From a virus (taxonomy: Duplodnaviria; Caudoviricetes): a DNA stretch of 64,000 nt. Location of the stretch: positions 1 to 64,000 of IMG/VR virus record IMGVR_UViG_3300010051_000550, one strand, 5' to 3'. The translations under genes were made by a program, and so were the position numbers. Below, piece by piece: positions 22,941 through 44,800 of the stretch. The notes under the pieces are model-generated. The model did no database searches. It was given only the letters and a program-made list of their open reading frames with translations, and was not told the DNA's origin. The first letter of the stretch is position 1. The number at the start of each line of letters is the position of its first letter.

Positions 22941-23216
22941 GAGACCGAGCCGGCTCGAATGCGCCGGCTGCTGAACGAGGAGCGGGCGCAGCGTGTCGCG
23001 GCTATGCGGGTGGCGAGCGAGATGTTCGGGAACTTCAATCGACTGCTGGCCGAGTCGGTGGCGCAGCAAGCCGCGACTCAGGCGGCGTTGGACAAGGCGA
23101 ATCGGGATATTGACGCGCTGAGGGCTCGGCCGGTGGGAGGAGTGCTCCGCTGGAGAGAAAGACGCTTTATGGGGGACACAGATGCCAGAATGTACGTTGA
23201 CGGAGAAGAAGAATAG
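22872..23216 (+). CDS. Chimeric coiled-coil protein with a tail-tube-derived N-terminus
   Basis: MAEIPFEALLFGLEGTPGTGAAP vs MAEIPFEALLLGLESTSGTGVAP (39073). Confidence 0.65.
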   Translation: MAEIPFEALLFGLEGTPGTGAAPETEPARMRRLLNEERAQRVAAMRVASEMFGNFNRLLAESVAQQAATQAALDKANRDIDALRARPVGGVLRWRERRFMGDTDARMYVDGEEE

Positions 23217-23228
23217 AAGGAACTTAAG

Positions 23229-23486
23229 GTGAATATGATGAAAGCAGCTGCTAACGTAATCGCGGTGTTGGGATGGGGCGGGTTCCTGGTGGCCTTGTGG
23301 TGGCCGCTTGTGATGGGCGAGATGCCGGCTCTCGGTTCATGGCTAGCCGTCATTTTGTTTTCGCTTCTGACGGGTTTGGTCGTGCCGTCGTATCTCCTTC
23401 GACTGGAGATTCAGATCAGCTCCACGGCGGCCGGCTCGGCGGAGCGCGCGAAGGCGGTTGGTTCGCGGCCGGGCAGGCAGCCGTGA
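23229..23486 (+). CDS. 2-TM membrane protein
   Basis: Two hydrophobic helices. Confidence 0.6.
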   Translation: MNMMKAAANVIAVLGWGGFLVALWWPLVMGEMPALGSWLAVILFSLLTGLVVPSYLLRLEIQISSTAAGSAERAKAVGSRPGRQP

Positions 23487-24432: not shown

Positions 24433-24597
24433 ATGAGCAAAAAGACGAAAGGGCAGACGGTGACGACTGAGAAGAACGGCATCGTCATCGAGACGACGTA
24501 TGACGGCGAGGGGAATGTGATCGCTGTCAAGAAATGGGTGAAGCCGGACAAACGGCAGCGAGGCCCGGCCCCCAACGTGGAGCAGCGGCCGCAATAG
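24433..24597 (+). CDS. 54-aa hypothetical (absent from the ORF track)
   Basis: GGAG RBS; MSKKTKGQTVTTEKNGIVIETTYDGEGNVIAVKKWVKP... Confidence 0.5.
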   Translation: MSKKTKGQTVTTEKNGIVIETTYDGEGNVIAVKKWVKPDKRQRGPAPNVEQRPQ

Positions 24598-24610
24598 GGA
24601 CGAGGACGTT

Positions 24611-24823
24611 ATGGCGCAACAATCGCGGGAGCCGGCCGCCGGCCAAGGGCCGACATTGCCGGGCGGGTTGGCGAAATGGGCGTGGAAGGCGGCGCTGCGT
24701 CTGGCGACGCTGAAGCAGCCGGGGGTGTACGGGCTGCTTCTGATCGTGCGGCCGGACAACACGCGGGAGTTGGTGATCCAGAACAGCGACCGGCCGCACA
24801 AGCCGGAGGATTTAGGTGCGTGA
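24611..24823 (+). CDS. Hypothetical protein
   Basis: GAGGA RBS; TGATG coupling. Confidence 0.55.
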   Translation: MAQQSREPAAGQGPTLPGGLAKWAWKAALRLATLKQPGVYGLLLIVRPDNTRELVIQNSDRPHKPEDLGA

Positions 24824-25086
24824 TGACAAATAAGCAGAATGTGAACAGCAGTCAGAACTCGGCGCTGGCGGGACTCGGCCAGGCGCTGGATCAGGGAGCG
24901 TGGGTGAATTTGTACAAGTCGAATCCGGTGCTGGCGCAGGCAGTGGCGGATGCGGTGGGCCAGGGAGTGACGCCGATAGCTATTCGGCATTATGTGATGC
25001 GCCACACGGGTGGCCAGTCGGATTTGGCGAAGTTCGTGGAGCAGGCGGCGCGCTGGGTGGCGAAAGCGGCACCGGACGAGACGTAA
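24823..25086 (+). CDS. Hypothetical helical protein
   Basis: Coupled ATG at 24823. Confidence 0.55.
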   Translation: MTNKQNVNSSQNSALAGLGQALDQGAWVNLYKSNPVLAQAVADAVGQGVTPIAIRHYVMRHTGGQSDLAKFVEQAARWVAKAAPDET

Positions 25087-25122
25087 ATCGCGCGGCCGAG
25101 CGGCCCCTTTCCTATTCTGTGT

Positions 25123-25144
25123 AGCCCGGTTCGCCGGGTTTTTT
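25123..25144 (+). terminator. Rho-independent terminator
   Basis: CCCGG-TTCG-CCGGG followed by TTTTTT. Confidence 0.8.
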
Positions 25145-25202
25145 CATCTGTTTGCGCGCCAACATTTGAGCCGATTCCCCTGCCGTTTCTCTCTGTAAAA
25201 CC

Positions 25203-25255
25203 TTGACTTTCACGGCCGAACGATTATAATATTATTAATTGTTAATTATTAATTT
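25203..25255 (+). promoter_or_regulatory. Strong sigma70 promoter with AT-rich operator tract
   Basis: TTGACT (25203-25208), 16 nt, TATAAT (25225-25230); TTATTAATT repeats downstream. Confidence 0.85.
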
Positions 25256-25271
25256 TGGAGACAAGACCACC

Positions 25272-25496
25272 ATGACGATTTACGAGGAAGTCAACGAGCA
25301 GCTGGAGAACAAGAATATCGATTCGTCGCAGATATCGGCCATCGGCTTCACGCCCGCTATCGGCCGGTACGCGCAGATGGACGACGGCACGCGGATCGCG
25401 CTGAGCGACCACGACTACTGGCTGCTGGACGACAACCTGGAAGCGATGAATCAGGCGTGGCTGGCGCAGCAAGCAGAAGAAACCATTCCCGCCTGA
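25272..25496 (+). CDS. Small acidic hypothetical protein
   Basis: GGAGACAAGACC RBS motif. Confidence 0.7.
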   Translation: MTIYEEVNEQLENKNIDSSQISAIGFTPAIGRYAQMDDGTRIALSDHDYWLLDDNLEAMNQAWLAQQAEETIPA

Positions 25497-25523
25497 AGAG
25501 CGGGGCCAAAAGGAGACAAGACC

Positions 25524-25856
25524 ATGTTGACTGTAGATTCCTTGACCGCAGTGTACGCCGCCATGAAGGCGGCGACCGCCGAGGCCTTTAACGCGGCCGA
25601 AGCGGCCGAGATCGCAAGCGCCGCCTACGAGGCGGGCAAGAGCGCCCTTCTGCTGGACGGCAAGTTGGACGGCAAGAACGAGGCTCAGCGCGAGGCGCAG
25701 GCCCGCGAGGCGCTGGCTCCTCTGTTCGAGACCGTCCAGGCGACCGGGCGGGCGGCGCGCCTGAAGAAGCACCTTCAGGAGATGGCGCGGATGGATGTGG
25801 AACTGGTTCGCGCACAGCTCCGGTTTCTGGAGCTGGCTGAGGTGAACGAGGCCTAG
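25524..25856 (+). CDS. Coiled-coil hypothetical protein
   Basis: GGAGACAAGACC RBS; LDGKNEAQREAQ motif. Confidence 0.7.
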   Translation: MLTVDSLTAVYAAMKAATAEAFNAAEAAEIASAAYEAGKSALLLDGKLDGKNEAQREAQAREALAPLFETVQATGRAARLKKHLQEMARMDVELVRAQLRFLELAEVNEA

Positions 25857-25901
25857 CACGACAGGCCGGGGAGGTGACTAACCCGGCCGAGGAGATACGA
25901 G

Positions 25902-26291
25902 ATGGCTGTCAATAGAATGGCCGAGGTGTGCGAGTTTTTGGTGTACCTCAGCGACGAGACGCTGGCGCGAGTTGAGGCGGCCGCCTCTCAGGAGATAGAG
26001 CGGCCGGGCGCGACAGCGGAAGAAATAGAGAACGGGCGTGTGGTCGTAGATGCGGTACGCCGCGTCTATGACGGCCGCGAGCCGGCCAGGCATGTGGAGC
26101 ACGCCCCCCACGTCGGGGAGACGGGCATCGAATGCCCGTTCTGCGACCGGGAGCTCGACTGGAACGGTCACTTGCACGTTTTCTGCTGCGACTGCTGCGA
26201 CTACAAGTGGAAGGATGCGGCCGAGATCGAGCGCGACCGGAAGCTGGTCGCGATGGCGTACAGCCAGATGACCGGTGGCCTGGACGGGTAA
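25902..26291 (+). CDS. Zn-ribbon protein
   Basis: CPFC ... CCDCC. Confidence 0.65.
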   Translation: MAVNRMAEVCEFLVYLSDETLARVEAAASQEIERPGATAEEIENGRVVVDAVRRVYDGREPARHVEHAPHVGETGIECPFCDRELDWNGHLHVFCCDCCDYKWKDAAEIERDRKLVAMAYSQMTGGLDG

Positions 26292-26304
26292 AGAGGAAAA
26301 AATC

Positions 26305-26811
26305 ATGAAGGAATTTCCGGTTGATGCGGGGATTATTGGAATCGTGCCGGTGGCGGCCATCCAGCGCGAGGACAGCTGGAAGGAAGGCGGGCTGGTGATT
26401 CGGGTGCAGGGCGGGCGGTTTCTGAACCTGCACTACGACTATGGAACGATCACCATCACGGCCGACCTGAACGGGGCGGTGCCGGTGCTGGAAGACACCG
26501 ATTTCTGGGTAGGGGATTTGTGCTACGTGCTGGAGAACAATATCCCGGCCGACGATCCCCAGTGGCACGAGTCGACTAATCCGGCTCCCGGCTACTGGGC
26601 GGCATGCGTCAGTTCATTCGAGACGCCGCGACATGGCGGGTGCTATTTTGCCCGGCCGTTCCGTTTGGAAGGGGGAATGGCGGGGCTGGTTTCGAGCACA
26701 CAGTGGGGAGACGGGTTGTACCCGGGCGCGGTTCAGCACGAGGGCAAGTACACGGTTCGCGTGCGGATTGAAACCGGTGAGGTAGATGATTTTGAGGATG
26801 AGGAGGAGTGA
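26305..26811 (+). CDS. Hypothetical protein (DUF4241-like GDGxYP motif)
   Basis: VDAG.IGI, VGDLCYV, STQWGDGLYP. Confidence 0.6.
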   Translation: MKEFPVDAGIIGIVPVAAIQREDSWKEGGLVIRVQGGRFLNLHYDYGTITITADLNGAVPVLEDTDFWVGDLCYVLENNIPADDPQWHESTNPAPGYWAACVSSFETPRHGGCYFARPFRLEGGMAGLVSSTQWGDGLYPGAVQHEGKYTVRVRIETGEVDDFEDEEE

Positions 26812-27623
26812 TGGGCGGCTTGATACGAAGACTAGTAGTAGATAGCGATGAACTGGTGGATGGGCTAGACAAGGCCGTTGCGCCGGTGGCCGACGAGATC
26901 GACCTGACATTACTGGATGAGAAACGCAGTTTGACCGGCATGGTGCTTAGGTGCGTATGGGAGGTGCGGGTGAAGTCGGTCGACATGCGTCCGTTTCGGT
27001 TGATCTACGACGACAGCAGAGCGGCGGAGGACGGTGAATGGTTCCTCGAAAGCGATGACGAGAGCGTCACTCTGACGTGGTGGGCAGAGTACGGCGACTG
27101 GCAAAGTCAGCCAATTCGGGAATTTTTGCGCCGACAGTTATGGCCGTCGAAATCGGCCGTCGTGCTGATCGTCTGGAACGGCGATTACGAACTGTTCGAG
27201 AATGCGTTGGTGCAGTTTAAAGACCCGGCCGTTATCCGGGAAATGTACAACCTCACGAAAGCGCTCAGGCCGGTAGGCCAGGGGAAAGTGGCGGGGCTGA
27301 GCGTCTATAGCACCTGTGCCAAGTTGACAGCCGATTCCGTCACCGCTTATCAAACCCACGCGACCCACGATACTACGCCGGGGCGCTCGCTTGGTGATGA
27401 GGTTCTCCTTGAGCCGCTAGTCGCCGCTCCCTTGTTCGGAGAAGAGATCGATGACCTGATGTTGGAAGTGAGCGACGACGGCATGCTTCTGATCCGAAGT
27501 GACAGGCTCAACGGATGGGGATCGATTGATCTGGGTGACCTTGTCTTGGCGCTTGATACAGAGTCAGCATGCGGATTGGGATCGGCGATGAGGACGAGGA
27601 GGAATGATGGGTCTGTTAGCTGA
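26808..27623 (+). CDS. Hypothetical protein, paralog A
   Basis: Tandem paralog of 27604-28437. Confidence 0.75.
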   Translation: MMGGLIRRLVVDSDELVDGLDKAVAPVADEIDLTLLDEKRSLTGMVLRCVWEVRVKSVDMRPFRLIYDDSRAAEDGEWFLESDDESVTLTWWAEYGDWQSQPIREFLRRQLWPSKSAVVLIVWNGDYELFENALVQFKDPAVIREMYNLTKALRPVGQGKVAGLSVYSTCAKLTADSVTAYQTHATHDTTPGRSLGDEVLLEPLVAAPLFGEEIDDLMLEVSDDGMLLIRSDRLNGWGSIDLGDLVLALDTESACGLGSAMRTRRNDGSVS

Positions 27624-28437
27624 TTTGATGCGGGAGGAGTCGGCCGACGACTTGGCGCTGGCGGGTGAAGAGAGCTTGCGCCGGGACTGGAGAGAGATTA
27701 CTTCAGAACTGGCCAGAGTGATCGCGCCGGTGGCGGACGAGGTGGAGCTGACCGAGGTCTTTCGGGAGCGCACCGACACAGCCGTTCTCAAATGCACGTG
27801 GCTCGTTCGGCCCAAGCCCGAAGCAGCCCTGGATGGGGCGTTTCATTTGGTGTTCGATGTTGCCAGGGGATGGTACCTGGTAGACGCGAACTCGAAGAGA
27901 GTCTTCCTCGTTAACGGTGGCTCTCTGGACAGAGAGCCGCATTGGGAGGCGGCTGAGGTTCGCGCGTTCCTGAAGAGGGTGCTGGTTCCGAAGGAGAAGG
28001 GGCTGGTATGGGTGGTGGCCGATTGGTCAGGAGATACTGACTATGAGGAAGTTCTGGTCAGCTTCGACGGGAAGGCGCTCGTCGGCGAGATGTGCCGGGT
28101 GGTGCGCGCCGGTCTTCATCCGCTTCTTCAGCCACCGATGTTCGGGGATGATGACTGGTTGCGCGTGACGGGGTCGTCAATCGAGATGCGAGGCAAGGCG
28201 ATACAGGTGTATCGGTTCCGGCCGGGGCGCACAGCGAGAGATGGAAGCTTGCCGGGAGCTGGGATGCTGCTCGATGCGGCCGACGCTATGGCGTTGTGCG
28301 GCGCGCCGATTGGGACGCTCATTTTGGAACTGGGCAACGACGGGATGTTGCTAGTGCATAGCGACGAGTATGAGAGGGAGGGGTGGGCAACGGTCGATTT
28401 GCTGGCGGTGGAGGAGATGCTGGATGAAGCACAGTAA
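27604..28437 (+). CDS. Hypothetical protein, paralog B
   Basis: APVADE..L...L.C.W.VR and LE...DGMLL..SD...GW...DL shared with paralog A. Confidence 0.75.
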   Translation: MMGLLADLMREESADDLALAGEESLRRDWREITSELARVIAPVADEVELTEVFRERTDTAVLKCTWLVRPKPEAALDGAFHLVFDVARGWYLVDANSKRVFLVNGGSLDREPHWEAAEVRAFLKRVLVPKEKGLVWVVADWSGDTDYEEVLVSFDGKALVGEMCRVVRAGLHPLLQPPMFGDDDWLRVTGSSIEMRGKAIQVYRFRPGRTARDGSLPGAGMLLDAADAMALCGAPIGTLILELGNDGMLLVHSDEYEREGWATVDLLAVEEMLDEAQ

Positions 28438-28717
28438 AACCGGCCGCGAACTTGATTACGAGGAATTCGCCAAGCTGCACGCTTTCCAGTATCGGCTCTC
28501 GGAGCTTCTGGTGACCTGCGAAGTGGTGTCTGTCGCTATGAGCGATGACTTCGTGTTCTGCGTCTGGGGAGTTCTCCGGCATGGGCCAGAGAAAAAGCCG
28601 GCGCTTCTGGCGTCGGTGCCGGGAGACTTGGACAAGGCCATTGAGTTGGCCATGTTCGCCGCACAGGAGTTGGAGCGGCCGTATCTTGAAACGGTGGAAT
28701 TGGAGACAACATCATGA
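28424..28717 (+). CDS. Hypothetical protein
   Basis: GAGGAG RBS; operon context. Confidence 0.55.
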   Translation: MKHSKTGRELDYEEFAKLHAFQYRLSELLVTCEVVSVAMSDDFVFCVWGVLRHGPEKKPALLASVPGDLDKAIELAMFAAQELERPYLETVELETTS

Positions 28718-29859
28718 GACTGGAAGAACTGTTGGAAATGGGGCTGGATGAGGAAAAGGCTGAGGAAGCGAGGAAGGCCGAGCGCGATGCGGCATTCCGC
28801 TCTCGACTGGCCAAGCACGACGCGGCGTTTCGGTCTTGGCTGGGCGAGCTGGCCGAGGACTTCGAGATCGATAGGCCGGAGGAGTTGGACGGATATATCG
28901 GTGGTGAGCAGCCGATACGCTGGACAATCCGCCCGAAGTGGCGGTTGCCCTATCCCTTCACCGCCATGACGGCGGGTAGCGGCGCATACCGGTTTGGGCT
29001 GAACGGCACAGCCTACGCGGTCAGCACGGCCAACGATCCGGACTTCGCCCGCTTCCTGCTGAATGCCAAGAAAGCGCATGACGCGGAACTCGAAGAGCGG
29101 ATCGCGGGACTGGCGAGGGAACTGGCGGTCGTCAAGGTGTTCACCCGCGCCGATAGCGAGGAGGCCCGGCTACGGAACACGCACGCGAAGCTTATGCAAC
29201 TGGCTCCGGCGCGGTGGGAAGAGTGGGCCGCCTTGTTGAATAAGTCGCTGGCCGAGTTGAAGGGGCAAGTCGCACAGCAGGAAGAAGAGGAGGCCTTCCG
29301 CGCGTCGGCGATAGAGGCATATCGCCTCGCGATGGAGGCGTGGGCCGATGAGTGCGAGGCCGTCGCCGCCCACAACGCCGAGGTGATCAACCGGCTGAAG
29401 AACGCCCTGGGCGAGGTGAAGCAGGAGCTCATGATGGTCGAGTACGCCGTCGTTGCCGACGACGAGTACGGCCCCCAGGTCGAGATACGCACGGCATGGA
29501 GCGCCGGCGAGATTGCCGACGCGCCTGACGCGCATCTGCTCATTGAAGGCGGCCGAGTTCGGAAGTGGACGATCCGCAACATCATCCGCATGTCCGAGTT
29601 GGAAGAGGTGACGCCGGATAGACATCCCAACCTGTTCGACGAGATGCAGATCGCCGGAGAGAGGGTCTTCTTCCTGCCCTGCTCGGCCGAGCACCGGACG
29701 TTGGTCAACGAGGCATTGAGCGCCGTCCGTGTCGCCCCGGATGCGCCAAGCTGGGATGAGTCCAGCGGCGGGCTGGGGTACGGTGATGACGTACGCGACG
29801 CCGCGCGGCCGGCGCGGGATCGGGCTAACCAGGTCGTCACGGAGTGGTGGCCGTTCTGA
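28714..29859 (+). CDS. Acidic coiled-coil hypothetical protein
   Basis: 381-aa ORF, ATGA coupling. Confidence 0.75.
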   Translation: MRLEELLEMGLDEEKAEEARKAERDAAFRSRLAKHDAAFRSWLGELAEDFEIDRPEELDGYIGGEQPIRWTIRPKWRLPYPFTAMTAGSGAYRFGLNGTAYAVSTANDPDFARFLLNAKKAHDAELEERIAGLARELAVVKVFTRADSEEARLRNTHAKLMQLAPARWEEWAALLNKSLAELKGQVAQQEEEEAFRASAIEAYRLAMEAWADECEAVAAHNAEVINRLKNALGEVKQELMMVEYAVVADDEYGPQVEIRTAWSAGEIADAPDAHLLIEGGRVRKWTIRNIIRMSELEEVTPDRHPNLFDEMQIAGERVFFLPCSAEHRTLVNEALSAVRVAPDAPSWDESSGGLGYGDDVRDAARPARDRANQVVTEWWPF

Positions 29860-29877
29860 GTTGTGTGGAGGTAAGGG

Positions 29878-30126
29878 ATGGCAACTGATACCAAAGAATC
29901 ACAGGCGGTTCGCGCATGGTGCATTGAACTGAAGGCGGCGCTGTTGCGTTTGGAAGCGGCCGTCTACATGGTTGAAATCGGCCGCGACGCGCCGGAGACG
30001 GTGCAGGTGGAGTTGGCGCGGGTGCGCGAGGTGTGGGATCGATGCCCGCTTCCGTTGCACGAGATGGGCGCGATGAAGGTGCACGTGCTCGCCAACGGGA
30101 CGTGGGAGACGCACGATGTCTCATAA
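29878..30126 (+). CDS. Hypothetical protein
   Basis: GGAGG RBS. Confidence 0.55.
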   Translation: MATDTKESQAVRAWCIELKAALLRLEAAVYMVEIGRDAPETVQVELARVREVWDRCPLPLHEMGAMKVHVLANGTWETHDVS

Positions 30127-30156
30127 CCCGATGGGCGGCGGTTTTGGGAGGCGAGT

Positions 30157-30546
30157 ATGACGAGGAAGCAAGGCAGCGACGGGTATCTGCCGACGGCGCG
30201 GTATGTGGGACCGAGCGACGAACTGCGCTTCGGCGAGGCGGAGTATCAGGGCGGGCGGATTTATCCGGTTTCGCCGGAGGCTCACGCGAAGTTGCGCGCG
30301 TTCTGCCTGGCCCAGCGGGAAGCGGCTGCGGCGCGGCGTAAGGCGGCGCGGCGTCGGGTTGAGTTGTCGTCGGAGCAGTTGGAGGAGGTGATTCGCCGGC
30401 ACGAGGGGGGTGAGTCGCTGACAAATTTGGCGGCCGAGTTCGGGGTTAGCGCGATTACGCTGATCCTGCGGCTGCGTGAGTTGGGTCATGATACGTCGCG
30501 CCGGCCGGGAAAGGGCCGGCGCAAGAGGCAGAGGCTGGAGAAGTGA
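30157..30546 (+). CDS. HTH DNA-binding protein
   Basis: EEVIRRHEGGESLTNLAAEFGVSAITL helix-turn-helix. Confidence 0.7.
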   Translation: MTRKQGSDGYLPTARYVGPSDELRFGEAEYQGGRIYPVSPEAHAKLRAFCLAQREAAAARRKAARRRVELSSEQLEEVIRRHEGGESLTNLAAEFGVSAITLILRLRELGHDTSRRPGKGRRKRQRLEK

Positions 30547-30580
30547 ACGGAATGAAGTTCAAGTTTATTGAAGGCGCGCA

Positions 30581-30877
30581 ATGACATTCGCCATCAGACT
30601 GTCCGACCTAGCCATCCTGCCTGAGTTTCATCCACTCGGGTTTCTGCTTGGCCCGGTATTAACCGATAGGATCGTTAACCTTGGCGGCCAGTTCGATGCG
30701 GCGGGAGTAGTCCTGGAATGCGACGACGCCGAACGGCTGGATGCAATTCTGCGCGTCGCTACGTCGCAGAACCTACCCGGATTATCGTGGCCGATACGGA
30801 CGTATAAGAGCACTACCGGCGCGGGCGCCTGGCGGCGGTGGAATCCGACTGAGGAGACCCCGGCTACCGTAGACTAG
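30581..30877 (+). CDS. Hypothetical protein
   Basis: ORF inside the repeat-flanked insert. Confidence 0.55.
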   Translation: MTFAIRLSDLAILPEFHPLGFLLGPVLTDRIVNLGGQFDAAGVVLECDDAERLDAILRVATSQNLPGLSWPIRTYKSTTGAGAWRRWNPTEETPATVD

Positions 30878-30927
30878 CCCCCTGCCCTCTGACACCGTGT
30901 TTTTGAAATAGTTCAAAGGAGAATGAA

Positions 30928-31275
30928 ATGATCAACATTGACGATTTAACAATAGGACAGGCCCGCGAGTTAGCGGCCATGTTCGCCGGCGCACACGCCG
31001 CGCCGCCAACCGTTATTGACCACGGCCTGCAAATCGCAGTGCTGGATAGAGGTTTCGTCTACATCGGATACGTGACCACCGATGGCGAGTGGTGTCGCAT
31101 CGAGAACGCCTGGAACATCCGACGCTGGGGCACTAAGAAGGGCCTCGGTGAACTGGTGAACGGGCCACTGTCCGACACGGTTTTAGATCGCGTCGGCCGG
31201 ATTCGACTGCCAATGAGCGCGCTATTACACCTCATCGAGGCAAAGGGGACGGCGTGGACGAGCAAATTAAACTGA
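30928..31275 (+). CDS. Conserved phage protein (DUF6948-like)
   Basis: AVLDRGFVYIG...NAWNIRRWGTKKGLGELVNGP. Confidence 0.7.
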   Translation: MINIDDLTIGQARELAAMFAGAHAAPPTVIDHGLQIAVLDRGFVYIGYVTTDGEWCRIENAWNIRRWGTKKGLGELVNGPLSDTVLDRVGRIRLPMSALLHLIEAKGTAWTSKLN

Positions 31276-31490
31276 CCGGCGTCTACCGCTTCGGCGGCCT
31301 CTTCGGCGACGGCGGTGGCTACGGCTACGGCAACGGCAACGGCACCGGCTTCGGCGCCGGCAGCGACGGCTACGGCGACGGCTACGGTGATGGCTATGGC
31401 TACGACGGCGACGGCAACGGCACCGGCTTCGGCGACGGCAGCGACGGCTTCGGCGACGGCTGCGGCGACGGCGGCTACGGCCATGCCTAA
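31254..31490 (+). CDS. Gly-rich G-x-G repeat protein
   Basis: GYGNGNGTGFG.../GYGDGYGDG; GTG start with RBS; GGCGAC/GGCTAC microrepeats. Confidence 0.6.
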   Translation: MDEQIKLTGVYRFGGLFGDGGGYGYGNGNGTGFGAGSDGYGDGYGDGYGYDGDGNGTGFGDGSDGFGDGCGDGGYGHA

Positions 31491-31555
31491 AAGTAACGGC
31501 CGCGTTCCAAGCGCAGCCGGGCGGCTGCGCAAGAGGCAGAGGCTGGAGGAGTGAA

Positions 31556-32302
31556 ATGAGTGATCTATTGACATTGACAGACGCGGCTTTCGATAACCTG
31601 GTCATCAACATGACGAGCAAGGAGCGGGCTTCTGCTTTACGGCAGATGGTGCGCCAAGTGCGCGAACTTCAGGAGGCATTGGGGCAGGTCGATCTTGGCG
31701 AGTGGGAAGATGACCGGCTTCGGGAGTGGCTGCCGGCGGCGGCGGAAAGCGAGATGGTCAAGCGGTTGACCGCCCGGAGCGAGGGGCTGAACTGGGAGCT
31801 TGGAATGGCTACTCGACGTATGGCCGAACTGGAAGCTGAGAATGTCCGGCTTCGGGAGCGTTTGGCGGCGGCCGAAGAGCGCGGAAGCGAATTTGAGGAA
31901 GGTCTGGCGTATGTGGAAACAAACTCCGATAGCCTCGCTCCACCAGTGGGGTATAAGCCGGACCCGATCCAGTTTCAATGTTTGAGGACGTGGTACTCGG
32001 CGGGGGAGGTGTCAATCCATCACTCCGAACAGGTTCTGCACGCGGTGCTGGGTCTAACGGGGGAGGCGGGGGAAGTTGCCGACCTGGTGAAAAAGTGGGC
32101 GTTCAAGCCAGGGGCGTCGGTCGGCCGCGAGGACGTGCTCGATGAGCTGGCGGACGTGCTGTATTACACGGCGGTGCTGGCGCATCTGTGGGAGTTCGAT
32201 AATGAGGACATGCTCGACCATCTGGCGAAGAAGCTGGCGGATGGGCATGGATGGAAGGGGTTGCCGCCGATTGTGGCGATGAGGTGCGGTGAAGGCCGGT
32301 AG
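31556..32302 (+). CDS. Coiled-coil + MazG-like NTP pyrophosphohydrolase
   Basis: LHAVLGLTGEAGEVADLVKK ... DELADVLYY (ExxE/ExxD metal motif). Confidence 0.85.
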   Translation: MSDLLTLTDAAFDNLVINMTSKERASALRQMVRQVRELQEALGQVDLGEWEDDRLREWLPAAAESEMVKRLTARSEGLNWELGMATRRMAELEAENVRLRERLAAAEERGSEFEEGLAYVETNSDSLAPPVGYKPDPIQFQCLRTWYSAGEVSIHHSEQVLHAVLGLTGEAGEVADLVKKWAFKPGASVGREDVLDELADVLYYTAVLAHLWEFDNEDMLDHLAKKLADGHGWKGLPPIVAMRCGEGR

Positions 32303-32414
32303 CGGGAGAGCAGAGACATGAGCTAGATGCTGAACGGAACGTGCGTGACGACCTGGCGAAGCACGGGGTGGCTATCAAGGGCAATCTGAGCATTGAGATC
32401 GAACTGTAACGAGG

Positions 32415-32948
32415 GTGGAGATGGCCGAGTTGGTATTTGATAATTGCAGGGTGCTGGCGCTGGCAGTGGTGACGAATGGAATTCACGATGCTGTGACCGG
32501 GGTGGAAGAGGCGAGGGAGTGGATCGGCTCAGAGGTGTTTGAGTTATGGTGCGACCGGTGTGATTTGCATCCTGAGTACCTGCGCCGGCGGGTGGCGCGG
32601 CTTCTGGCTTCGGGGCGGTCTGTTCTGCTGCCGGACGATGGGGATGACGAGGCGGTGGATATTGACGAGGCGGTGCGGCTGCATGAAGAAGAGGGGTATA
32701 CCTGGTCGGAGGCCGCCGCGAAGATGAACGTGTCTGTTTCGACCTTGCGGAATAGACGCAAGGCGGCCGGGCATAACATGGCTAAGAGCACCGGCGCAGG
32801 GGCGACCGGTAAGGAGATCATCAAGATCGATTTGGAAGCGGCCAGGCGGCTGCATGAGCGGGGACTTACCTGGAGGGAGATCGCCGACCAGCTCGGGGTG
32901 AGTGCCGAGACGCTGCGACTGCGGCGGAAGGCGTTTGGAGGATTGTGA
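32415..32948 (+). CDS. Double-HTH DNA-binding protein
   Basis: YTWSEAAAKMNVSVSTL and LTWREIADQLGVSAETL. Confidence 0.75.
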   Translation: MEMAELVFDNCRVLALAVVTNGIHDAVTGVEEAREWIGSEVFELWCDRCDLHPEYLRRRVARLLASGRSVLLPDDGDDEAVDIDEAVRLHEEEGYTWSEAAAKMNVSVSTLRNRRKAAGHNMAKSTGAGATGKEIIKIDLEAARRLHERGLTWREIADQLGVSAETLRLRRKAFGGL

Positions 32949-33322
32949 TGGCTCTTTGCAGATGGTCTGATTACCGATGTGACTTGTATATCTATGAGAG
33001 CGACTGGGGCATCGAGTGCCATGTGGCCTGGCGGCGGCGCGTGGGCGAACCGGAGCCGCCGCTTATCCCCGTGGATGGGGACGATGAGGCGTGGCTGGCG
33101 TGGCAAAAGGCATTTGTGGTTTATGAAGAGCAACTGCTGGCGGCGCCGCTGGAGCGGATCGGCCTGCCCCACGACGGAGAGAGCCGCACCTTCGGCGAGT
33201 GGGGCGAGTTGCTGGCGTATGTGACGGGGTTGAAGGAGTTGGGGTATGGGGTGCCGGATTGGGTGATTGAGGAGATCAAGGAGGAGGTTGCCGCGTCCGG
33301 TTTGTTGGAAAGCGAGGAGTGA
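32945..33322 (+). CDS. Hypothetical protein
   Basis: CRWS..CDLYIYES..G..CHVA motif. Confidence 0.65.
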   Translation: MMALCRWSDYRCDLYIYESDWGIECHVAWRRRVGEPEPPLIPVDGDDEAWLAWQKAFVVYEEQLLAAPLERIGLPHDGESRTFGEWGELLAYVTGLKELGYGVPDWVIEEIKEEVAASGLLESEE

Positions 33323-33374
33323 ACATGTGTTCACGCGGGGCGTATTGACGCGCGGCCGGGGCGCGTGATAACCT
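33319..33374 (+). promoter_or_regulatory. Capsid-operon promoter with upstream SOS-box-like palindrome
   Basis: GTGAACATGTGTTCAC (33319-33334), 10 nt, TTGACG (33345-33350), 18 nt, TAACCT (33369-33374) preceded by an extended -10 TG. Confidence 0.7.
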
Positions 33375-33448
33375 ATCAGCACAGCGATAAATCATATATT
33401 CTGAGCGCGGCGCAACGGCCGCGAACAGCGACGTAAAACGTGTGAATG

Positions 33449-33484
33449 ACGCCGCTCCCAATTCGGGAGCGGCGTTTTTGTTTT
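33449..33484 (+). terminator. Leader terminator/attenuator upstream of the protease gene
   Basis: ACGCCGCTCCC-aattc-GGGAGCGGCGT-TTTTGTTTT. Confidence 0.75.
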
Positions 33485-33494
33485 CGGAGGTGGT

Positions 33495-35415: not shown

Positions 35416-36627
35416 ATGAGCACGATTGAGACGAAAGCACGCGCCGGCGATCTGCTGGGGCAGATGGGCCTGAGCATGTACCGGCGCGCCTACGATCAGG
35501 GCATGTCCCTGTCGGCGCTGCTGGAGAAGGAAGACCCGTCGGGTGATTACCGCGACGGGACCGACGCCTTCCAGCGCATTTTGATGGCGGCCGATCTTCG
35601 CACGGAGACGCTGCCGCACTACGGGGTGCAGGCGAGCACCTTCGGCGAGTTCCTGAGCGACGAGCGGACGCGGGCCTTGATTCCCGAATGGCTGCTGCGC
35701 GAGTGGCGCAGTGTGCAGACGGGGCGGCCGTTTTCGACCCGCGCCATGTACACCAGCGCCGATGCCGCCGCCGGATCGTGGGAGCGGCCGTATGCCGAGG
35801 CGAACACGCCGCGCGTGGATCAGCAGATCGCGCCGGCCATTCCGTTGAGCCAGCTGGTCGCCATTACGACCCCGATCAACTCGGCCGAGTATCGCTCCTA
35901 CTATCTGGAGAACGACGAGAGCCAGACCAGCATGGTGCGCGTGGCTGAGGGTGCCGAGGTTCCGCGCGTGAAGCTGACCGGCAGCCAGCACGTGATCAAC
36001 CTGCTGAAGTACGGCCGCGCGCTCGAGGCCTCCTACGAGGTGTTGAAGCGCCAGCGTGTGGATCGCCTGGCGCTGACGGTGCGCATGATGGCGGCTCAGG
36101 CTGAGGCGGACAAGGTTGGGGCGATCATCGACGTGATGGTCAACGGCGACGGCAACAACAACGCGCCGACGACTCACGCGCTGACCACTCTGGACTCGAC
36201 CGCGACGCCCGGCACGCTGTCCCTGAAGGCCTGGCTGGCTTTCAAGATTAAGTTCGGCAATCCGTATGCCATCACCGGCGCGCTGGCGCAGGAGGCTGTG
36301 GCGCTGCAGATGCTTCTGTTGAACACCGGCTCGGCCAACACGCCGCTGGTGGCTGTGCAGCAGCCGAGCGGCTTCGGCGCGTTCACGCAGATCAATCCGG
36401 GCTTGCGCGACAGCGTGGCGCTGGGCTGGACGGCCGATGCGCCGTCGCTGAAGATCGTCGGTTTCGACCGCCGCTTCGCCATCGAGCGCGTGGTGGACGT
36501 GGGCATGACCATCACCGAGATCGAGCGGTTCATCACTCGTCAGGTGGAAGTGCTGGTTGTGACCGAAGCCGAAGGGTACGCCATCATCGACAAGAACGCG
36601 ATCAACGTTCTGAATGTGAACGCCTAG
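35416..36627 (+). CDS. Major capsid protein
   Basis: 403 aa; VAEGAEVP..KL, KYGRALEASYE HK97-fold patterns; high-expression codon bias. Confidence 0.85.
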   Translation: MSTIETKARAGDLLGQMGLSMYRRAYDQGMSLSALLEKEDPSGDYRDGTDAFQRILMAADLRTETLPHYGVQASTFGEFLSDERTRALIPEWLLREWRSVQTGRPFSTRAMYTSADAAAGSWERPYAEANTPRVDQQIAPAIPLSQLVAITTPINSAEYRSYYLENDESQTSMVRVAEGAEVPRVKLTGSQHVINLLKYGRALEASYEVLKRQRVDRLALTVRMMAAQAEADKVGAIIDVMVNGDGNNNAPTTHALTTLDSTATPGTLSLKAWLAFKIKFGNPYAITGALAQEAVALQMLLLNTGSANTPLVAVQQPSGFGAFTQINPGLRDSVALGWTADAPSLKIVGFDRRFAIERVVDVGMTITEIERFITRQVEVLVVTEAEGYAIIDKNAINVLNVNA

Positions 36628-39072: not shown

Positions 39073-40290
39073 ATGGCCGAGATTCCATTTGAGGCATTGT
39101 TATTGGGACTGGAGAGCACGTCGGGAACCGGAGTCGCGCCGACGCATTATGCCAGTATGGTCGGCTCGTTGAAGCCGGTGAAGGAGCGGTACCGGCCGGA
39201 CGAGGCCAGGGGCACGCTGGTTGAGGCGTATCGCTCGAAGGTAGCTCGTGAGTGGAGCGAGTGGTCGGGCGAGGGGCCGCTGGATGTGTACCTGCTGCCG
39301 GTTCTGCTGAATATGTGCGTGACCGGCAACATGACGAGCCAGCCGACGACGCCCGGCGGCGCGACGAACGCGCGGCTGTGGACGTTCAAGCCGACGATCA
39401 ACGCCAATGACCTGAAGACGGCGACGATCTTCTGGGGCGACCGGAACGTGCAGATGTTCCGTGGCCGCTTCGGAACGCTGGACGAGCTGACGATTACGGC
39501 CGATGCCTCGGGCACGGATGGCTCGAAGATGTCGGCCAGCGGCCGGACGCAGATTCAGGATTACGAAGAGTACGACGTCTCAGCGATCTCGAAGGACAAC
39601 CCGGCCGAGGTGACCATCGGCACGCACTCGCTTCTGGCGGGCGATAAGGTGCGAATCGTCGGCGGTGAGATGGTGGAGCTGCACGATCTGGTGTTCACTG
39701 TGGCGAACCCGACGGGCACGACCGTTGAACTGGCGGGGATCGATTCGACCGGATATACGACCTACGTGGGGGGCGGCACGCTGGAGAAGGTGGCGCCGGC
39801 GTTCCCGTCCATCCTGACCGCGCCGCTGATCTCGGGGCCGGGGATGCAGATGTGGCTGGATACGTCCTCGGCGATTGGGTCGACGGAGATTTCGGGCCGG
39901 CTGATTTCGGCCGAGCACGTGATTCCGGTCAACTACGGGTACAAGCACCTCGCCGTCGGCCCGGCCGGCGCGAAGACGTACTCGCGGGTCGGCCGCAACA
40001 AGCGCTCGATCACGACTCGCGTGACGCTGGAACTGTTCGACATGGATCAGTATAAGTTGTTCCAGAACGAGACAAACACCAAGCTGCGAATCCGGCACAA
40101 CGGAGACTTGATCGAGGCCGGCTTCTACCACTACGTGGAAGTGGACACCTACGGGCCGTTGAACTTCACGGATTGGGGCGAGTTGGAAGGGACGAACCGG
40201 ACGCTGACGCTGGAAATACAGAGCCAATATGACGCGACGCTGGGGGCGGACTTCAGCGTGAAGGTGCAGAACGACCGGGCGACGCTTTAG
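39073..40290 (+). CDS. Major tail (tube) protein with an inserted E1-FCCH-like beta domain
   Basis: GLESTSGT start; insert AISKDNPAEVT..HSL..GDKVRI.G.M.EL...FTV...T..TVEL.GIDSTGY. Confidence 0.8.
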   Translation: MAEIPFEALLLGLESTSGTGVAPTHYASMVGSLKPVKERYRPDEARGTLVEAYRSKVAREWSEWSGEGPLDVYLLPVLLNMCVTGNMTSQPTTPGGATNARLWTFKPTINANDLKTATIFWGDRNVQMFRGRFGTLDELTITADASGTDGSKMSASGRTQIQDYEEYDVSAISKDNPAEVTIGTHSLLAGDKVRIVGGEMVELHDLVFTVANPTGTTVELAGIDSTGYTTYVGGGTLEKVAPAFPSILTAPLISGPGMQMWLDTSSAIGSTEISGRLISAEHVIPVNYGYKHLAVGPAGAKTYSRVGRNKRSITTRVTLELFDMDQYKLFQNETNTKLRIRHNGDLIEAGFYHYVEVDTYGPLNFTDWGELEGTNRTLTLEIQSQYDATLGADFSVKVQNDRATL

Positions 40291-40314
40291 TACGATTGCA
40301 ATACATTCCGTGAG

Positions 40315-40355
40315 GGAAGAGTATGGAAAGGCCTCGAATTCGAGGCCTTTTTGTT
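40315..40355. terminator. Terminator hairpin, left copy of an imperfect direct repeat
   Basis: GGAAGAGTATGGAAAGGCCTCGAATTCGAGGCCTTTTTGTT. Confidence 0.75.
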
Positions 40356-40426
40356 GAGATTGTACGATGATCAGAATGTCGATGAGCATCATTGATTAAG
40401 TTCTGGATGGACTATATCAATTATAA

Positions 40427-40855
40427 TTGACAGATCGAGTTCAAATGATCTATTATCCGGTTCCCTCAATCGAAATGAGCGCCCGGCAACATCGAGGGCG
40501 GGTGTCGAAAGTGCTAACTGGGCAAACAACCAATATGAGCGAAGAAAACAATGCCATCGAATTTAATATAGTCTGGGAATCGGATAGACACCTCCAGACG
40601 ATCTATGCCAATCACTTCTATATCACTCACGCTGGAGACGAGTTCTATTTGATGTTTGGCGAGCTACCGTCTCCAAATATTGCGAATATGGCCCCGGACA
40701 AAATAAGAGACTATCTTGGCGACAGTCTTGAGATCAGGCCCTTGGTACGGCTGGCTATCGCGCCTCAAACGATGCTCAGGATAGCCGAGGCCATACAAAC
40801 GAATGTGTCCAATTACATCGGGAAAAATATCGGTGGTAAGGACGATGAAGAATGA
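40427..40855 (+). CDS. DUF3467-like protein
   Basis: IYANHFYITHAGDEFYLMFG...PLVRLAIAPQT; likely start 40445 or 40535 because TATAAT lies at 40422-40427; low GC. Confidence 0.75.
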   Translation: MTDRVQMIYYPVPSIEMSARQHRGRVSKVLTGQTTNMSEENNAIEFNIVWESDRHLQTIYANHFYITHAGDEFYLMFGELPSPNIANMAPDKIRDYLGDSLEIRPLVRLAIAPQTMLRIAEAIQTNVSNYIGKNIGGKDDEE

Positions 40856-41301
40856 GCACCCTAACTCTAAGAGTTGATCCATTTTCCGGAACCGGCCTAA
40901 ATAGAGGACATCAGAAGATCGGCGATCTGCCAGCAATCTATCGCCGCAAGACAAATACAACGGCCCGCCCTAAGGTTACTCTGAGCGATGAGTCCAACTC
41001 GTCAACCGATACCGATTCAGGGGTCACATATCTTGTAGGACAAGGCGGGATCGACGGTGAATGGAAGCTCTTACAACCTCTCTCCATCGTCATAGAAATT
41101 GACGAGGACGGCGATTACATTGTGTCCGACAAAGTGTTCTCTAGATACGGTGTAGGTGCAACTGTGCTGGAGGCATTTAAGGACTTCATATCCGATCTAA
41201 CCACGTACTACACGATTGTTGCTGAGTCCGCGGCGCACAATCCGGCCGCGGCAGCGTTGTTAGAGGAGATTCAACAGTACCTTCAACGAGCAGATGGCTA
41301 A
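40852..41301 (+). CDS. HicB-like antitoxin with N-terminal extension
   Basis: IVIEIDEDGDYIV....YGVGATVLEAFKDF partial RNaseH fold pattern; ATGA coupling. Confidence 0.65.
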   Translation: MSTLTLRVDPFSGTGLNRGHQKIGDLPAIYRRKTNTTARPKVTLSDESNSSTDTDSGVTYLVGQGGIDGEWKLLQPLSIVIEIDEDGDYIVSDKVFSRYGVGATVLEAFKDFISDLTTYYTIVAESAAHNPAAAALLEEIQQYLQRADG

Positions 41302-41312
41302 ATACGTCTCAA

Positions 41313-41609
41313 ATGTTTACATCGAAACAGATTTTACGCACTTTGCGCACCAAGTTTAAATTTACCGACGTTAAAGGAAAGTATGCAGATATATACGTTA
41401 CGCTTGAACTCCCTGGAGTTCGGCCAGTTGTAACAAAGGTTTCACATCCTAAGTCCCAAAGAAAAACTGTCGGGAAACCCCTTGAGAACCTGATGGCAAA
41501 GCAGTTGCGCGTTGAGACACAGTACTTCCGTAACATGATCGGATGCACGCGCAGTCAGGAAGAGTATTATGAGCGACTCAGGTCAGAGCAGTTCCCGCCT
41601 GTCGAGTAG
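41313..41609 (+). CDS. HicA-like toxin (putative mRNA interferase)
   Basis: Small and basic; KQILRTL..KF.F..,TKVSH (His), KPLENLMAKQL. Confidence 0.6.
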   Translation: MFTSKQILRTLRTKFKFTDVKGKYADIYVTLELPGVRPVVTKVSHPKSQRKTVGKPLENLMAKQLRVETQYFRNMIGCTRSQEEYYERLRSEQFPPVE

Positions 41610-41621
41610 GTTCCCTGCGAA

Positions 41622-41665
41622 GGAAGAGTATGGAAAAGCCCCTCGAAATCGAGGGGCTTCTTGTT
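41622..41665. terminator. Terminator hairpin, right copy of the imperfect direct repeat
   Basis: GGAAGAGTATGGAAAAGCCCCTCGAAATCGAGGGGCTTCTTGTT. Confidence 0.75.
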
Positions 41666-41803
41666 TATTGGGGGCTAACCCACACCCCTCACGCCCGTGA
41701 GAGCAACCCATCGGCCGCAGGTTTCCGGTTCATCTGACGGTGTCTACCGTACCTGGGCGTTTAACGACTCGATCTATGTAGTATCGCTTTGACGAGTTAT
41801 TAA

Positions 41804-44800
41804 TCATGTTTTTGATAATCTCTGAAGTACGCGTTTTATGGGCGGGTTCTTGATGTTACGAGGGATAATGGGCAAATCACCTTTTTGTAAGGCAGCAATA
41901 TCCGGATCGTTTTCTCCTATCTCCCATGCGGACCGAATAATCAACTCATGCTTTCCAATTGCATAATCCCAATCCGGATCAGGAAACTCTGTTTCCGAGA
42001 TGTATTGTGCAGGTAGGAGGACATACCTTCCCACACTTTTATAGTTCTTCAAAAAACCATCTAGATTATCGGAGTTCTGTGGCTCCATTGTATGAACCCG
42101 ACTAACCAGATGTAATTGGTTGCCCTTTGATGGCCTAATAGCATTAAGGTTAGTAGAAATCATCATTCTGTAATTAGCTTTTTTTCTTCTGTTAATCCCC
42201 CTAATAATCGAGATTCGCAACTGATCCTCTTCGTCAACACTGCCAAATCTGTCTATCCACTTTCTGAAAATATGTTTGGCTGGCTCTATATTCTCGAAGC
42301 CAAGGCCCAAAATCAGTACATCTTCAGGCAAAAAACCGAAACTGATTGCGGTCCATTTTGCCCTATCCCAAAGCGGAATGTTAATAAGCGAAATTATCTT
42401 GCGATCTTTGTGTTTCAAATTATCGATTGCGAATGAGGACTCAGGAATTTCGCCTTTTCCTAATTCCAGAGTCCATTCCTCTCTTTCATCTATGCCCTCT
42501 GCTTCTAAGTGATGATCCCACGGGAGACTACGTTTCATGGGATAATCGATATCGCTTTTATCATCTTTCCAATCGGAAAGGCGGAATCTAGGCGAACTTC
42601 CGATCATATTCACAACCGCAATGTCAATGTCTGTAATAAGCATTGCTCGACCAATGCTATGCTCGCTTTTGGCTAGTCGCTCCGTGAATGAATCAGTATC
42701 AACAACCACACCAATTTGAAGAGTTGTGTGAAGTAGAAAGTCCAGTAGCCATGCACTGAAGTCGCCCCTCTCATCCTGATTAGTCCGTCTTAATGTCCGG
42801 GGATGCCTAATGCTTATGGTTTGGCCAGTAGCCGTTTCATCGGTTTCAAACTTTGGCAAGCCGGCAAGGAAATCAGATGGTTCAATCGAAATATGCAATT
42901 CAGAGCGATACGGCAATATTACACTTTCAAGGCTCGTTGCTAATAATGCTTCAAGCGCCCCTAAGATCGTTTCGGCCAAATATATCGAGGTATGGTCATT
43001 GAATGCGTGAATTGACACCTCGCAACCGAGTACATTCGAGCGAAGAGTAACCTTCTTGCTCAAGAGCAAGTCAGGTTGGTACAACAAGTCGCGGCTGGCA
43101 GGTTGATTACGCCACCTTATGAATAAGTCACAAATTTCTTCAGGGCTGTCGTTCTCAGAAATGATATTCTCTGAACGCAGGTATTCCTCATATCCCAGTA
43201 CATACAACAGCGCCATCCGTGAGTAGGAAAGTTCCGCTCGCTCCAAGACTGACGGTAAGAAGTTGAGCCATTTTGAATCCCATATGCTTAGCCTCAAGAA
43301 CTGTATCGCTAAGACCTGATCCTGAATAGTCCGTTCATTTATGAACTTCTCTTGTTTCTCCTCATTTAGGAGCAAGGATTTTGCCAACAATGAAGCTACT
43401 TCTATCCATTCAAGAACGTGAGGGATGCGACCCAGTTGTAACTCCAACCAAATTATCCTTTGGGTGAGGGCAAGTGTCTGCGGCAAGAGTTTTCCATATT
43501 TATGGTATGCTGACCAAGAAGAGTTGATAGCAATAAGGAGATTTGAACGTGCTGCCCATAATAATCCAACTCTTTCATACGCAGCTCCACAGGCAGCAAC
43601 TGACATAATCCACTCCTCCATATGCTCCTCCACGGCCAATTCCTGTTGGGACTTTCCGAGGAGCCTGATAGCATCGTAATTCTTACCTGCTAGCAATTTT
43701 TGATACCCACGTGTAAGATGCAATTCTCCGGCTACGCTATCACCTGTTCTACGCTTAATGAATTCCTCGACCTCTTCCATCAATTCATCGTACTTAGCGT
43801 GAGACGCCAGAATCATTCCTAGCTCTTGAATGATATGAATTGTCGAGATAACAGGGTACTCGGCCAGCCCTTGGCTCTTCTTTAAAATACTTCCAAGCTG
43901 AGTGAGGATACCATTCACTCCTCGTCCCTTTGCCAACGCCTCGGCTAGTTCCATGAGTAATTTGATTGTGCGTGCATGATGTGCATTATTCGGACGTTGG
44001 GAGCTCATTGCCAGGCGGTTGAGTTCGGCTTTAGCTGTCCTAGTACGTTTCGATAATTTTCTCCTGCTTGTACCGGGCCGGCCCCGCTGGACTTCAACAT
44101 GAAGAAGTTGCCATAGATTGATCATCAGTTCGATATCAGTTGTCTGATTACTGCCTACTGCCAACTCCTCGACTCGTTCATACAAATTGTCAAACAACTC
44201 AATATCGCCGTACCACCAATATGCTGTCCAAGCTCTATTGTAAGCAATACGTAACATCTGCTGCCGATGTCCAACTTTCATGGCAACATGCTCAGCACGT
44301 TCGAACCTAGCTTCGATCTCCATCCGAGAAAGTTCAAGCCCACGCGCAAGCAGTGCCACTTGCAAGCAGTCTTCCGCGAGTTGATACCTAACCCCCTTGT
44401 ATCTCTCAGGGTCATTGATGCGCTCCTCGAGTTCCTTCATTTCTGCTTGACGTTTTGTGTCCTGTGATCCCAACTCCCTCTTCGATAATTCACCGAAGCC
44501 TTCTATATGGAGCGATTCAATTGCAAGTCGTAACCGCTCGTGCTCGAAGACGCACTTTACGATCCAATTTCGATCAAGTACCCGAACATCTATGCTGAAC
44601 TCTCGGGACAAGGCATCTTCAACTTCAGCTCGGGTGCTGTCCTTTACAAATTGATTTGTTATGAAATAAACAAGCTTGTAGCTTCGATTAGTCTTGGCGA
44701 TTTTCTCGACGTCAGACCGAACCTTTGATCGCCAGTCTTTCTTGGCGCTGAAGGCAAATGCCCACCGTTCTTGACTAGCTTCCCTACCAACCCCCTCATA

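Follow-up and report, generated by a model that had tools for sequence, protein, structure and literature searches.

How are the structural genes of a phage expressed when each of the operons that carry them begins behind a strong intrinsic terminator? The question is raised by the window, the 64,000-nt stretch analysed here, which makes up positions 1 to 64,000 of a 79.7-kb provirus record in IMG/VR (IMGVR_UViG_3300010051_000550; about 82% complete). A short leader cassette, in which a GC hairpin and then the motif AGCGACGTRAAACG precede a strong intrinsic terminator, can be read from the sequence at two places in it (33406–33484 and 46897–46982). A preliminary description of this DNA had placed such a leader upstream of both the capsid and the tail operons and had proposed a cis-acting antitermination or attenuation element that needs a phage factor or ligand. 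The placement was correct, with the gene of the major capsid protein among those downstream; the proposal is taken up below.

Two leader cassettes in one provirus

Nearly all genes of the window lie on the plus strand, among them the large terminase (GpA type; 18562–20268) and the portal and MuF-like head gene (20283–24421). Downstream of leader 1 lie a head-module gene of 474 aa, the gene of a virion protein of 141 aa and that of the major capsid protein (PF25209/phrog_3922; 35416–36627), and then neck genes and the major tail protein (39073–40290). The tail module is broken at 40.3–46.1 kb by a low-GC block (44–49% against about 62%) that includes two genes on the minus strand (1112 and 294 aa); after leader 2 come the tail chaperone gene (47007) and a 2444-aa tape-measure-like gene. 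The order at both sites is promoter, leader, terminator and ribosome-binding site (RBS), with about 10–25 nt between the end of the terminator and the RBS or first gene and no space for a further promoter. We propose from this layout that the second promoter and leader restart transcription into the tail chaperone and tape-measure genes. The host is probably a member of the Chloroflexota, since the capsid relatives are named from Anaerolineales, Ardenticatenales and other Chloroflexota metagenome-assembled genomes (MAGs).

On the head side, the P1 hairpin (33406–33423, plus strand), defined by folding and covariation, has a 6-bp GC stem (CGCGGC/GCCGCG) and a 6-nt non-conserved loop. It is followed on the same strand by the conserved single-stranded motif AGCGACGTAAAACG (33427–33440), with the core GYGACGURAAAC and A at R (type B), and by an intrinsic terminator (33448–33484; ΔG about −25 kcal/mol) with an 11–12-bp stem (ACGCCGCTCCC/GGGAGCGGCGT; 33448/9 to 33475/6), a 5-nt loop and a U-tract that runs to 33484. 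An RBS (33486–33492, plus strand) comes directly after the terminator, and the ATG is at 33495. The sigma-70-like promoter read upstream (TTGACG, 18-nt spacer, TG-n-TAACCT; 33345–33374, plus strand), whose geometry TTGACR-18-TAnnCT recurs in the related loci L007 and L169, is predicted to start transcription near 33381. Ten nucleotides 5′ of its −35 element stands the palindrome GTGAACATGTGTTCAC (GAAC-N4-GTTC, LexA-box-like; 33319–33334, no strand), also read from the sequence, which is an associated operator outside the RNA element proper.

The tail side repeats this order. The palindrome GTGAACATCTGTTCAC (46824–46839, no strand) lies 10 nt 5′ of the −35 element of a sigma-70-like promoter, TGTACA-17-TATAAT (46850–46878, plus strand), with a predicted start near 46885. 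Folding gives a P1 hairpin with a 7-bp stem (CTCGCGG/CCGCGAG) and a 5-nt loop (46897–46915, plus strand), of which the hairpin previously placed at 46899–46913 is the inner part; the other earlier hairpin position was confirmed. The motif is here AGCGACGTGAAACG (46917–46930, plus strand; type A), and the terminator (46940–46982, plus strand; ΔG about −28 kcal/mol) has a 13-bp stem with an 8-nt loop (46940–46973) and a T-tract to 46982, ahead of the ATG of the tail-assembly gene at 47007. The motif ends at 33440 and 46930 and the terminators from 33449 and 46940 that had been reported before are read directly in the sequence, and comparison of the two copies bears out that the stem interiors differ while the architecture is kept.

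We asked how far this recurrence exceeds chance. The exact 14-mer motif has two sites in the window and the same two in the whole 79.7-kb record, where the perfect palindrome GTGAACA-NN-TGTTCAC, 10 nt 5′ of each promoter, also occurs exactly twice. With two mismatches allowed, 43 of 100 shuffles gave at least two matches to the 14-mer as well, so its count alone is not significant; what lies beyond chance is the full architecture, found twice in the same order, together with its conservation elsewhere. Folding of the two leaders was far more stable than that of shuffles (z = −4.4 and −4.25; 0 of 200 as good), and their terminators were the top two matches of a terminator scan of the window. 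Both have the canonical features of intrinsic terminators, a GC-rich stem-loop with a direct U-tract, and the stem is kept by compensatory changes. A covariance model and a pattern search detected no further copy, whether in the window or elsewhere in the record. Rfam 15, searched with the whole window, gave no match at the gathering threshold, and at a permissive E-value the two leaders had chance matches only (16–26 bits against cut-offs of 34–60), in keeping with the earlier view that the motif may be uncatalogued.

Further features of the locus were noted. The gap between the major-tail and tail-chaperone genes (40291–47006) is a cargo hotspot whose contents differ among relatives: its equivalents in L097 (8491–10040), L152 (12753–17143) and L155 (9017–14200) belong to a set with minus-strand genes, DUF4411 plus M78 peptidase/HTH, HNH, an integrase and IS elements as cargo, and in L097 a tRNA-Ala(CGC) at 9682–9755, and the hotspot of L105 and L158 has no insert. 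On the head side, small genes homologous to window positions 24433–25087 lie directly 5′ of the capsid leader in L097, L105, L158 and L092, a place that in the window is taken by about 8 kb of other genes (25200–33322; MazG, HTH proteins and a paralogue pair at 26808–28437), a layout consistent with an inserted island. At the end of the head-morphogenesis block (25078–25145), GAGACGTAAATC overlaps the stop codon and is followed by a terminator, CCCGGTTCGCCGGG with a T-tract; a consensus promoter, TTGACT-17-TATAAT, stands directly after it near 25203–25231.

Conservation as RNA and independence from the promoter

Starting from capsid homologues, we collected the surrounding loci from IMG/VR, GTDB genomes, metagenomes and a protein-to-contig index. 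The cassette was present 28 times on related contigs of metagenomic or proviral origin, about 20 in number (L007, L091, L096, L097, L103, L105, L109, L148–L156, L158, L159 and L169), directly 5′ of the homologue of the 474-aa gene (the capsid copy), of the tail-chaperone homologue (the tail copy) or of both, in phages whose capsid identity is 48–91%. A covariance model (R1) built from 22 instances and searched over 1.9 Mb of related loci recovered all 22 at 58–90 bits; L092 (33.9 bits) and L031 (29 bits) were seen to carry diverged members in the homologous place. Scanned with a pattern and then with R1, IMG/VR yielded in addition the tail copy of an L007-type phage (L276) as well as L247 and L259, two loci with no detectable homology to the window. 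Downstream of the cassette in L247 come a gene of 428 aa, one that is scaffold-like (phrog_673) and one for a capsid protein from another family (phrog_1005). Scanning IMG/VR for the exact pattern, flanks included, returned a chance coding match only, a single-protein search of IMG/VR for loci related to the 474-aa gene returned nothing, and the phage nucleotide collection held no match.

Many more distant relatives carry a different leader and a strong terminator directly before the same head gene, so that gating of the head operon by a leader terminator seems to be a general habit of the wider phage group. In one clade further removed, another conserved leader, YGCYCCCGGU..RAACA.C, is directly followed by a terminator with the conserved base GCGGCGAGA...UCUCGCCGC, in the same place before the head operon (L011:5700–5790, L012:8060–8140, L014:2990–3060 and L019:4220–4290); it may represent a second, parallel leader family.

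Across the 28 instances, GACGU.AAAC is without variation and the two preceding bases are G-Y. P1 has a GC stem of 5–9 bp and a loop of 3–8 nt whose sequence is arbitrary; AAAC is separated from the terminator by 8–11 nt, mostly 8; and the terminator starts with ACGCCGC and ends with GCGGCGU around an interior of free sequence and length. Promoter spacers, P1 loops and terminator interiors thus diverge while the core stays fixed. In the alignment of all 28 (A5), which was fitted to the model and so favours the structure, 96.1% of the cells of P1 and the terminator are standard-paired and 10 of the 17 pairs change on both sides; none of 500 shuffles paired as well, and slid registers reached 35–59%. 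The raw sequences show the same compensations in P1 (CGCGGC/GCCGCG, CACGGC/GCCGTG, CCCGGC/GCCGGG and GCCGG/CCGGC). Many of the pairs are U·G or G·U, which would be A·C on the opposite strand, and selection therefore acts on the sense-strand RNA. We conclude from the comparison that the element is real and under selection as sense RNA. The covariance-model search suggested in the preliminary description has thus yielded a family with an invariant core and compensatory stem changes, and a cis-acting element that works at the RNA level and is coupled to a terminator is well supported.

The motif comes in two subtypes, GUGAAAC with C directly before the ACGCC of the terminator and GUAAAAC with G in that place. 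Both occur inside one genome in the window, L105 and L158, where a single reader of the motif must accordingly tolerate either base at R. Three other interpretations were discarded on inspection of the instances: a mini-hairpin inside the motif (ACGU-RAA-ACGU) forms in a subset only, as the bases after AAAC vary; a leader peptide has no conserved start codon or frame in the aligned instances; and GAAAC does not pair consistently with a GUUUC beyond the U-tract.

The cassette can be separated from what stands upstream of it. Most relatives, though not all, keep the palindrome, which the majority of copies have 10 nt before the −35 element; in L007 the distance is 31 nt (10 plus 21). The palindrome is absent, with the promoter present, in the capsid copies of L105, L158, L091 and L109 and in L247 and L259. 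Both promoter and palindrome are missing from the tail copies of L105 and L158, where the cassette comes directly after the stop codon of the major-tail gene. Hairpin, motif and terminator are therefore a unit on their own, and the palindrome is a separate control layer. GAAC-N4-GTTC is the LexA-box form of Gram-positive bacteria and Chloroflexota, and the window encodes a LexA DNA-binding domain without further domains (PF01726, 31.7 bits; 17665–17847, plus strand) in an open frame of about 99 aa just 5′ of the terminase. The LexA-domain protein and the palindromes are likely an operator/regulator pair for initiation at both late promoters, and this protein, listed earlier at 17623 as a candidate regulator of the leader, fits the DNA palindrome better than the RNA motif.

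Probable regulated read-through and its possible reader

The virion genes, which are needed abundantly, lie behind a strong terminator (−25 to −39 kcal/mol) with no space for a promoter, and read-through must therefore be achieved somehow. On balance, we think it probable that the cassette gates the head and tail-assembly operons as a conditional terminator, which the polymerase would pass by antitermination or attenuation; this part of the earlier proposal is retained as an inference. Host RNA polymerase, whether it initiates at the neighbouring sigma-70-type promoter or comes in from further upstream, would transcribe the leader of about 100 nt and by default stop at the very stable terminator before the first gene of the head-assembly operon; a second default stop would precede the tail-chaperone/tape-measure operon. 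The structural genes would then be expressed only when the terminator is overridden. The single-stranded motif, 8–11 nt from the terminator and beside P1, would serve as the recognition site for the override, by a phage or host RNA-binding protein or by the polymerase itself as with put RNA.

In one version of this model, GYGACGU would pair with the first 7–8 nt of the 5′ arm of the terminator (ACGCCRC), leaving a central A·C mismatch, and a bound factor would stabilize this weak antiterminator helix against the far stronger terminator. For most instances the isolated segment is predicted to fold into this helix (−3 to −8.6 kcal/mol), which is 15–30 kcal/mol weaker than the terminator, whose ΔG is about −18 to −39 kcal/mol across instances. 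The helix is compatible with all 27 distinct sequences, and in L091, the one double change, a C-to-U in the motif is matched by a G-to-A in the arm to give a U-A pair. The alternative helix is 83% paired with the central A·C always mismatched, and 74 of 500 shuffles did as well; it cannot be told from shuffles because both partners are nearly invariant. In the 101 genomes of the order that holds a related provirus, an A-rich lead-in and the base ACGCCGC...GCGGCGU are common in ordinary host terminators. Conservation of the base is hence not specific to the element and is weakened as proof of alternative pairing, and the antiterminator helix is put forward as hypothetical.

The host genomes were also examined for the motif itself. 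A loose pattern, GACGTRAAAC-N3-14-RCGCC, was no commoner than its reversed control in 167 genomes, and host-wide use of the motif was discarded, as the recurrent loose matches are coding sequence, for example an ABC-ATPase C-terminus. A single loose match, in the unpublished genome G034, underlies none of our conclusions. In an Ardenticatenaceae MAG, a short GC hairpin and GGACGTAAAACG stand before a host terminator after an mreB-like gene (L164:1520–1590; G001:C12:97579–97667), which R1 scores at 27 bits with an E-value of 0.0017 for that genome; with more than 100 genomes searched, the resemblance may be due to chance. Host terminators of the same order (L171–L195) often combine an A-rich run, (A)CGCCGC...GCGGCG(U) and a U-tract, a base typical of the lineage. 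Some genomes of that order carry dozens to more than 100 tandem (ACGTGAA)n heptamer arrays, which often form intergenic inverted-repeat hairpins directly after stop codons; heptamer variants include CGTGATG and CCGATTA, with up to 115 matches per genome against 0–1 in the reversed control. These loci (L226–L245, L332 and others, in G046, G025, G090, G047, G054 and G144) form an STRR-like family of some Chloroflexota-type genomes. A link of the motif to the (ACGTGAA)n repeats was dismissed as probably coincidental, since genomes that carry the element lack them.

A single-stranded core of about 10 nt, kept at constant spacing to the terminator, would require something that reads its sequence, be it a protein or the polymerase. 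We found no match to NusG (PF02357), cold-shock (CSD) or the Q families PF06530 and PF03589 in the 79.7-kb record, no N-like antiterminator protein in the phage genes scanned, nothing relevant in Pfam and PHROG searches of the neighbouring genes and, among these neighbours, no gene that accompanies the element in all loci. The genes at 32415 and 32945, just 5′ of the leader, are unique to this provirus, and the former, proposed before as a candidate regulator, has a homologue in no other element-bearing locus. The second gene proposed, at 30157, is an HTH_7 gene with homologues in some element-bearing loci and none in the rest, and a 70-aa gene (24611–24823) that lies just 5′ of the leader in several relatives has no recognizable features. 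A phage factor may be needed, as proposed earlier, but the presence of the cassette in L247, whose capsid gene is unrelated, leans towards a host factor or factor-free RNA; either fits at least as well. We offer, as a tentative possibility, a new class of antitermination RNA with no dedicated phage protein, which would act directly on the polymerase (put-like) or through a host RNA-binding factor and be portable among unrelated phages of Chloroflexota-type hosts as a ready-made gate for their structural operons, with the invariant core as contact surface and the terminator arm captured in a helix that a protein or the polymerase stabilizes.

Several other explanations address the same anatomy. 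The cassette might be a constitutive, tuned leaky terminator or insulator that needs no trans factor, with P1 and the motif setting read-through kinetically or protecting the 5′ end of the mRNA. The tail copy of L105 and L158, which is simply the terminator after the major-tail gene, would suit this account, as would the stem base and A-rich upstream run shared with host terminators and the occurrence of the weak antiterminator helix in about half of the truncated-transcript ensembles. However, an invariant core of about 10 nt, kept at capsid identities down to about 50%, far exceeds the needs of pairing or pausing, and a strong terminator between a strong promoter and the most-needed virion genes is hard to explain without an override. 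We regard this account as unlikely, and equally the idea that leakiness fixes the stoichiometry of early and portal against capsid genes and of tail tube against tape measure. Less likely again is promoter-loaded antitermination of the Q or AlpA type, in which a DNA-binding protein, for example one with a LexA domain, would bind the palindrome and ride the polymerase through the terminator while the RNA motif acts as a pause or loading signal only. The fixed phase of the palindrome to the −35 element, the PF01726 protein at 17665–17847 and a layout of promoter, terminator and first ORF that matches lambda PR′-tR′ and alpB (PMC7969949) favour it. Yet six copies dispense with the palindrome and two with the promoter, the palindrome is centred near −54 whereas the sites of Q and AlpA lie between −35 and −10 (PMC7969949), no Q-family protein was found in the record, and the invariance of the motif at a fixed distance from the terminator is left unexplained. 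That the cassette is kept inside a single transcription unit argues for local control at each terminator and against a purely promoter-loaded, processive mechanism.

To a trans-acting small RNA we give still less credence. Such an RNA of about 100 nt, with a 5′ hairpin, GYGACGURAAAC as seed and a Rho-independent terminator, would either have its own promoter or be a cleavage product of the major-tail 3′ UTR; the architecture is classical, with an own promoter, an invariant seed-like core and variable stems, and the tail copies of L105 and L158 resemble small RNAs derived from 3′ UTRs. Every one of the 28 instances, however, is found 10–25 nt 5′ of an RBS, always that of the same two kinds of gene, with no solitary copy among them, and the structural genes downstream have no other promoter. 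The GC hairpin with a tail of about 12 nt ending in GAAAC also recalls a CRISPR repeat, presumably in shape only (type I-C or type III repeats), and could in principle be a mimic acting as an RNA anti-CRISPR. This is highly improbable: in 167 genomes of the order to which related proviruses belong, no array of CRISPR spacing had repeats that end in CGTGAAAC, heptamer microsatellites being the only matches, and a strict position before structural operons is not expected of an anti-CRISPR.

Relation to known antitermination systems

The conditional terminator that we favour has its closest parallels in layout in lambda PR′-qut-tR′ with Q and in alpB with AlpA, where, as here, a promoter and then a strong terminator precede late or lysis genes and the terminator has to be bypassed (PMC7969949). 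By default these systems make a short terminated leader RNA, as we propose for the cassette too. The conserved element of the cassette, in contrast, lies in the transcript, 45–60 nt after the predicted start, and two relatives carry it without a promoter; the lambda Q and Pseudomonas aeruginosa AlpA sites are DNA sites (PMC7969949), and the phage record has no Q or AlpA homologue. What is shared with qut is thus the order of promoter and terminator ahead of late genes; dependence on promoter context and a Q protein were not found.

In N-nut (boxA/boxB) and rrn leaders, as in the cassette, a variable hairpin stands beside a conserved linear RNA element of about 12 nt, in more than one copy per genome and before terminators, and in the cassette both parts lie in the predicted nascent RNA. 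The motif is unrelated to boxA (GCUCUUUA-type in E. coli) and, unlike boxB, the P1 loop is not conserved. The cassette also differs from nut in that its element is 8–11 nt from its terminator and that a second copy is kept within one transcription unit, features more suggestive of a local than of a processive effect. The put RNA has a two-stem-loop fold of about 70 nt, whereas the cassette has one hairpin and a single-stranded motif (two hairpins only with the antiterminator helix) and shows no sequence similarity to it. Like the cassette, put is present in two copies per genome between promoter and terminators; this cis-acting RNA of phage HK022 needs no phage protein (PMC9378689), and put-like action would explain the absence of a partner gene.

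The targets of the RAT/BglG-LicT and ANTAR systems are likewise small RNA elements directly 5′ of the 5′ arm of a terminator, possibly overlapping it; their antiterminator is weak and wins only with a bound protein, as the hypothetical helix here would. The genes scanned, however, encode no CAT/PRD or ANTAR protein, the sequences are unrelated and the P1 loops, of 4–8 nt and not conserved, do not fit the hexaloop rule of ANTAR. The RfaH-ops and LoaP systems resemble the cassette in that long operons carry an invariant leader element of about 12 nt; the motif is predicted to hold a CGUG-type consensus pause, as in ops, with P1 about 11–12 nt 5′ of AAAC/G. Here the differences are a sequence unlike ops and a phage record without a NusG paralogue.

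We conclude, from comparison of sequences throughout, that the cassette is a conserved, uncatalogued cis-regulatory RNA that belongs to a known kind, the leader terminator that must be overridden, with a motif that is new. One small RNA cassette serves both the head and the tail-assembly operons, and its core is kept across deep divergence and in a phage with an unrelated capsid. In our reading, cargo hotspots can split a structural operon, and a promoter with a copy of the leader restores expression downstream. Control of late genes is essentially unknown in phages of Chloroflexota and of other uncultured, GC-rich, monoderm-like hosts. If regulated read-through is true, the cassette would be a new family of antitermination or attenuation RNA and a candidate for Rfam, a means of tracking down the host or phage factor responsible, and a compact, portable terminator switch.
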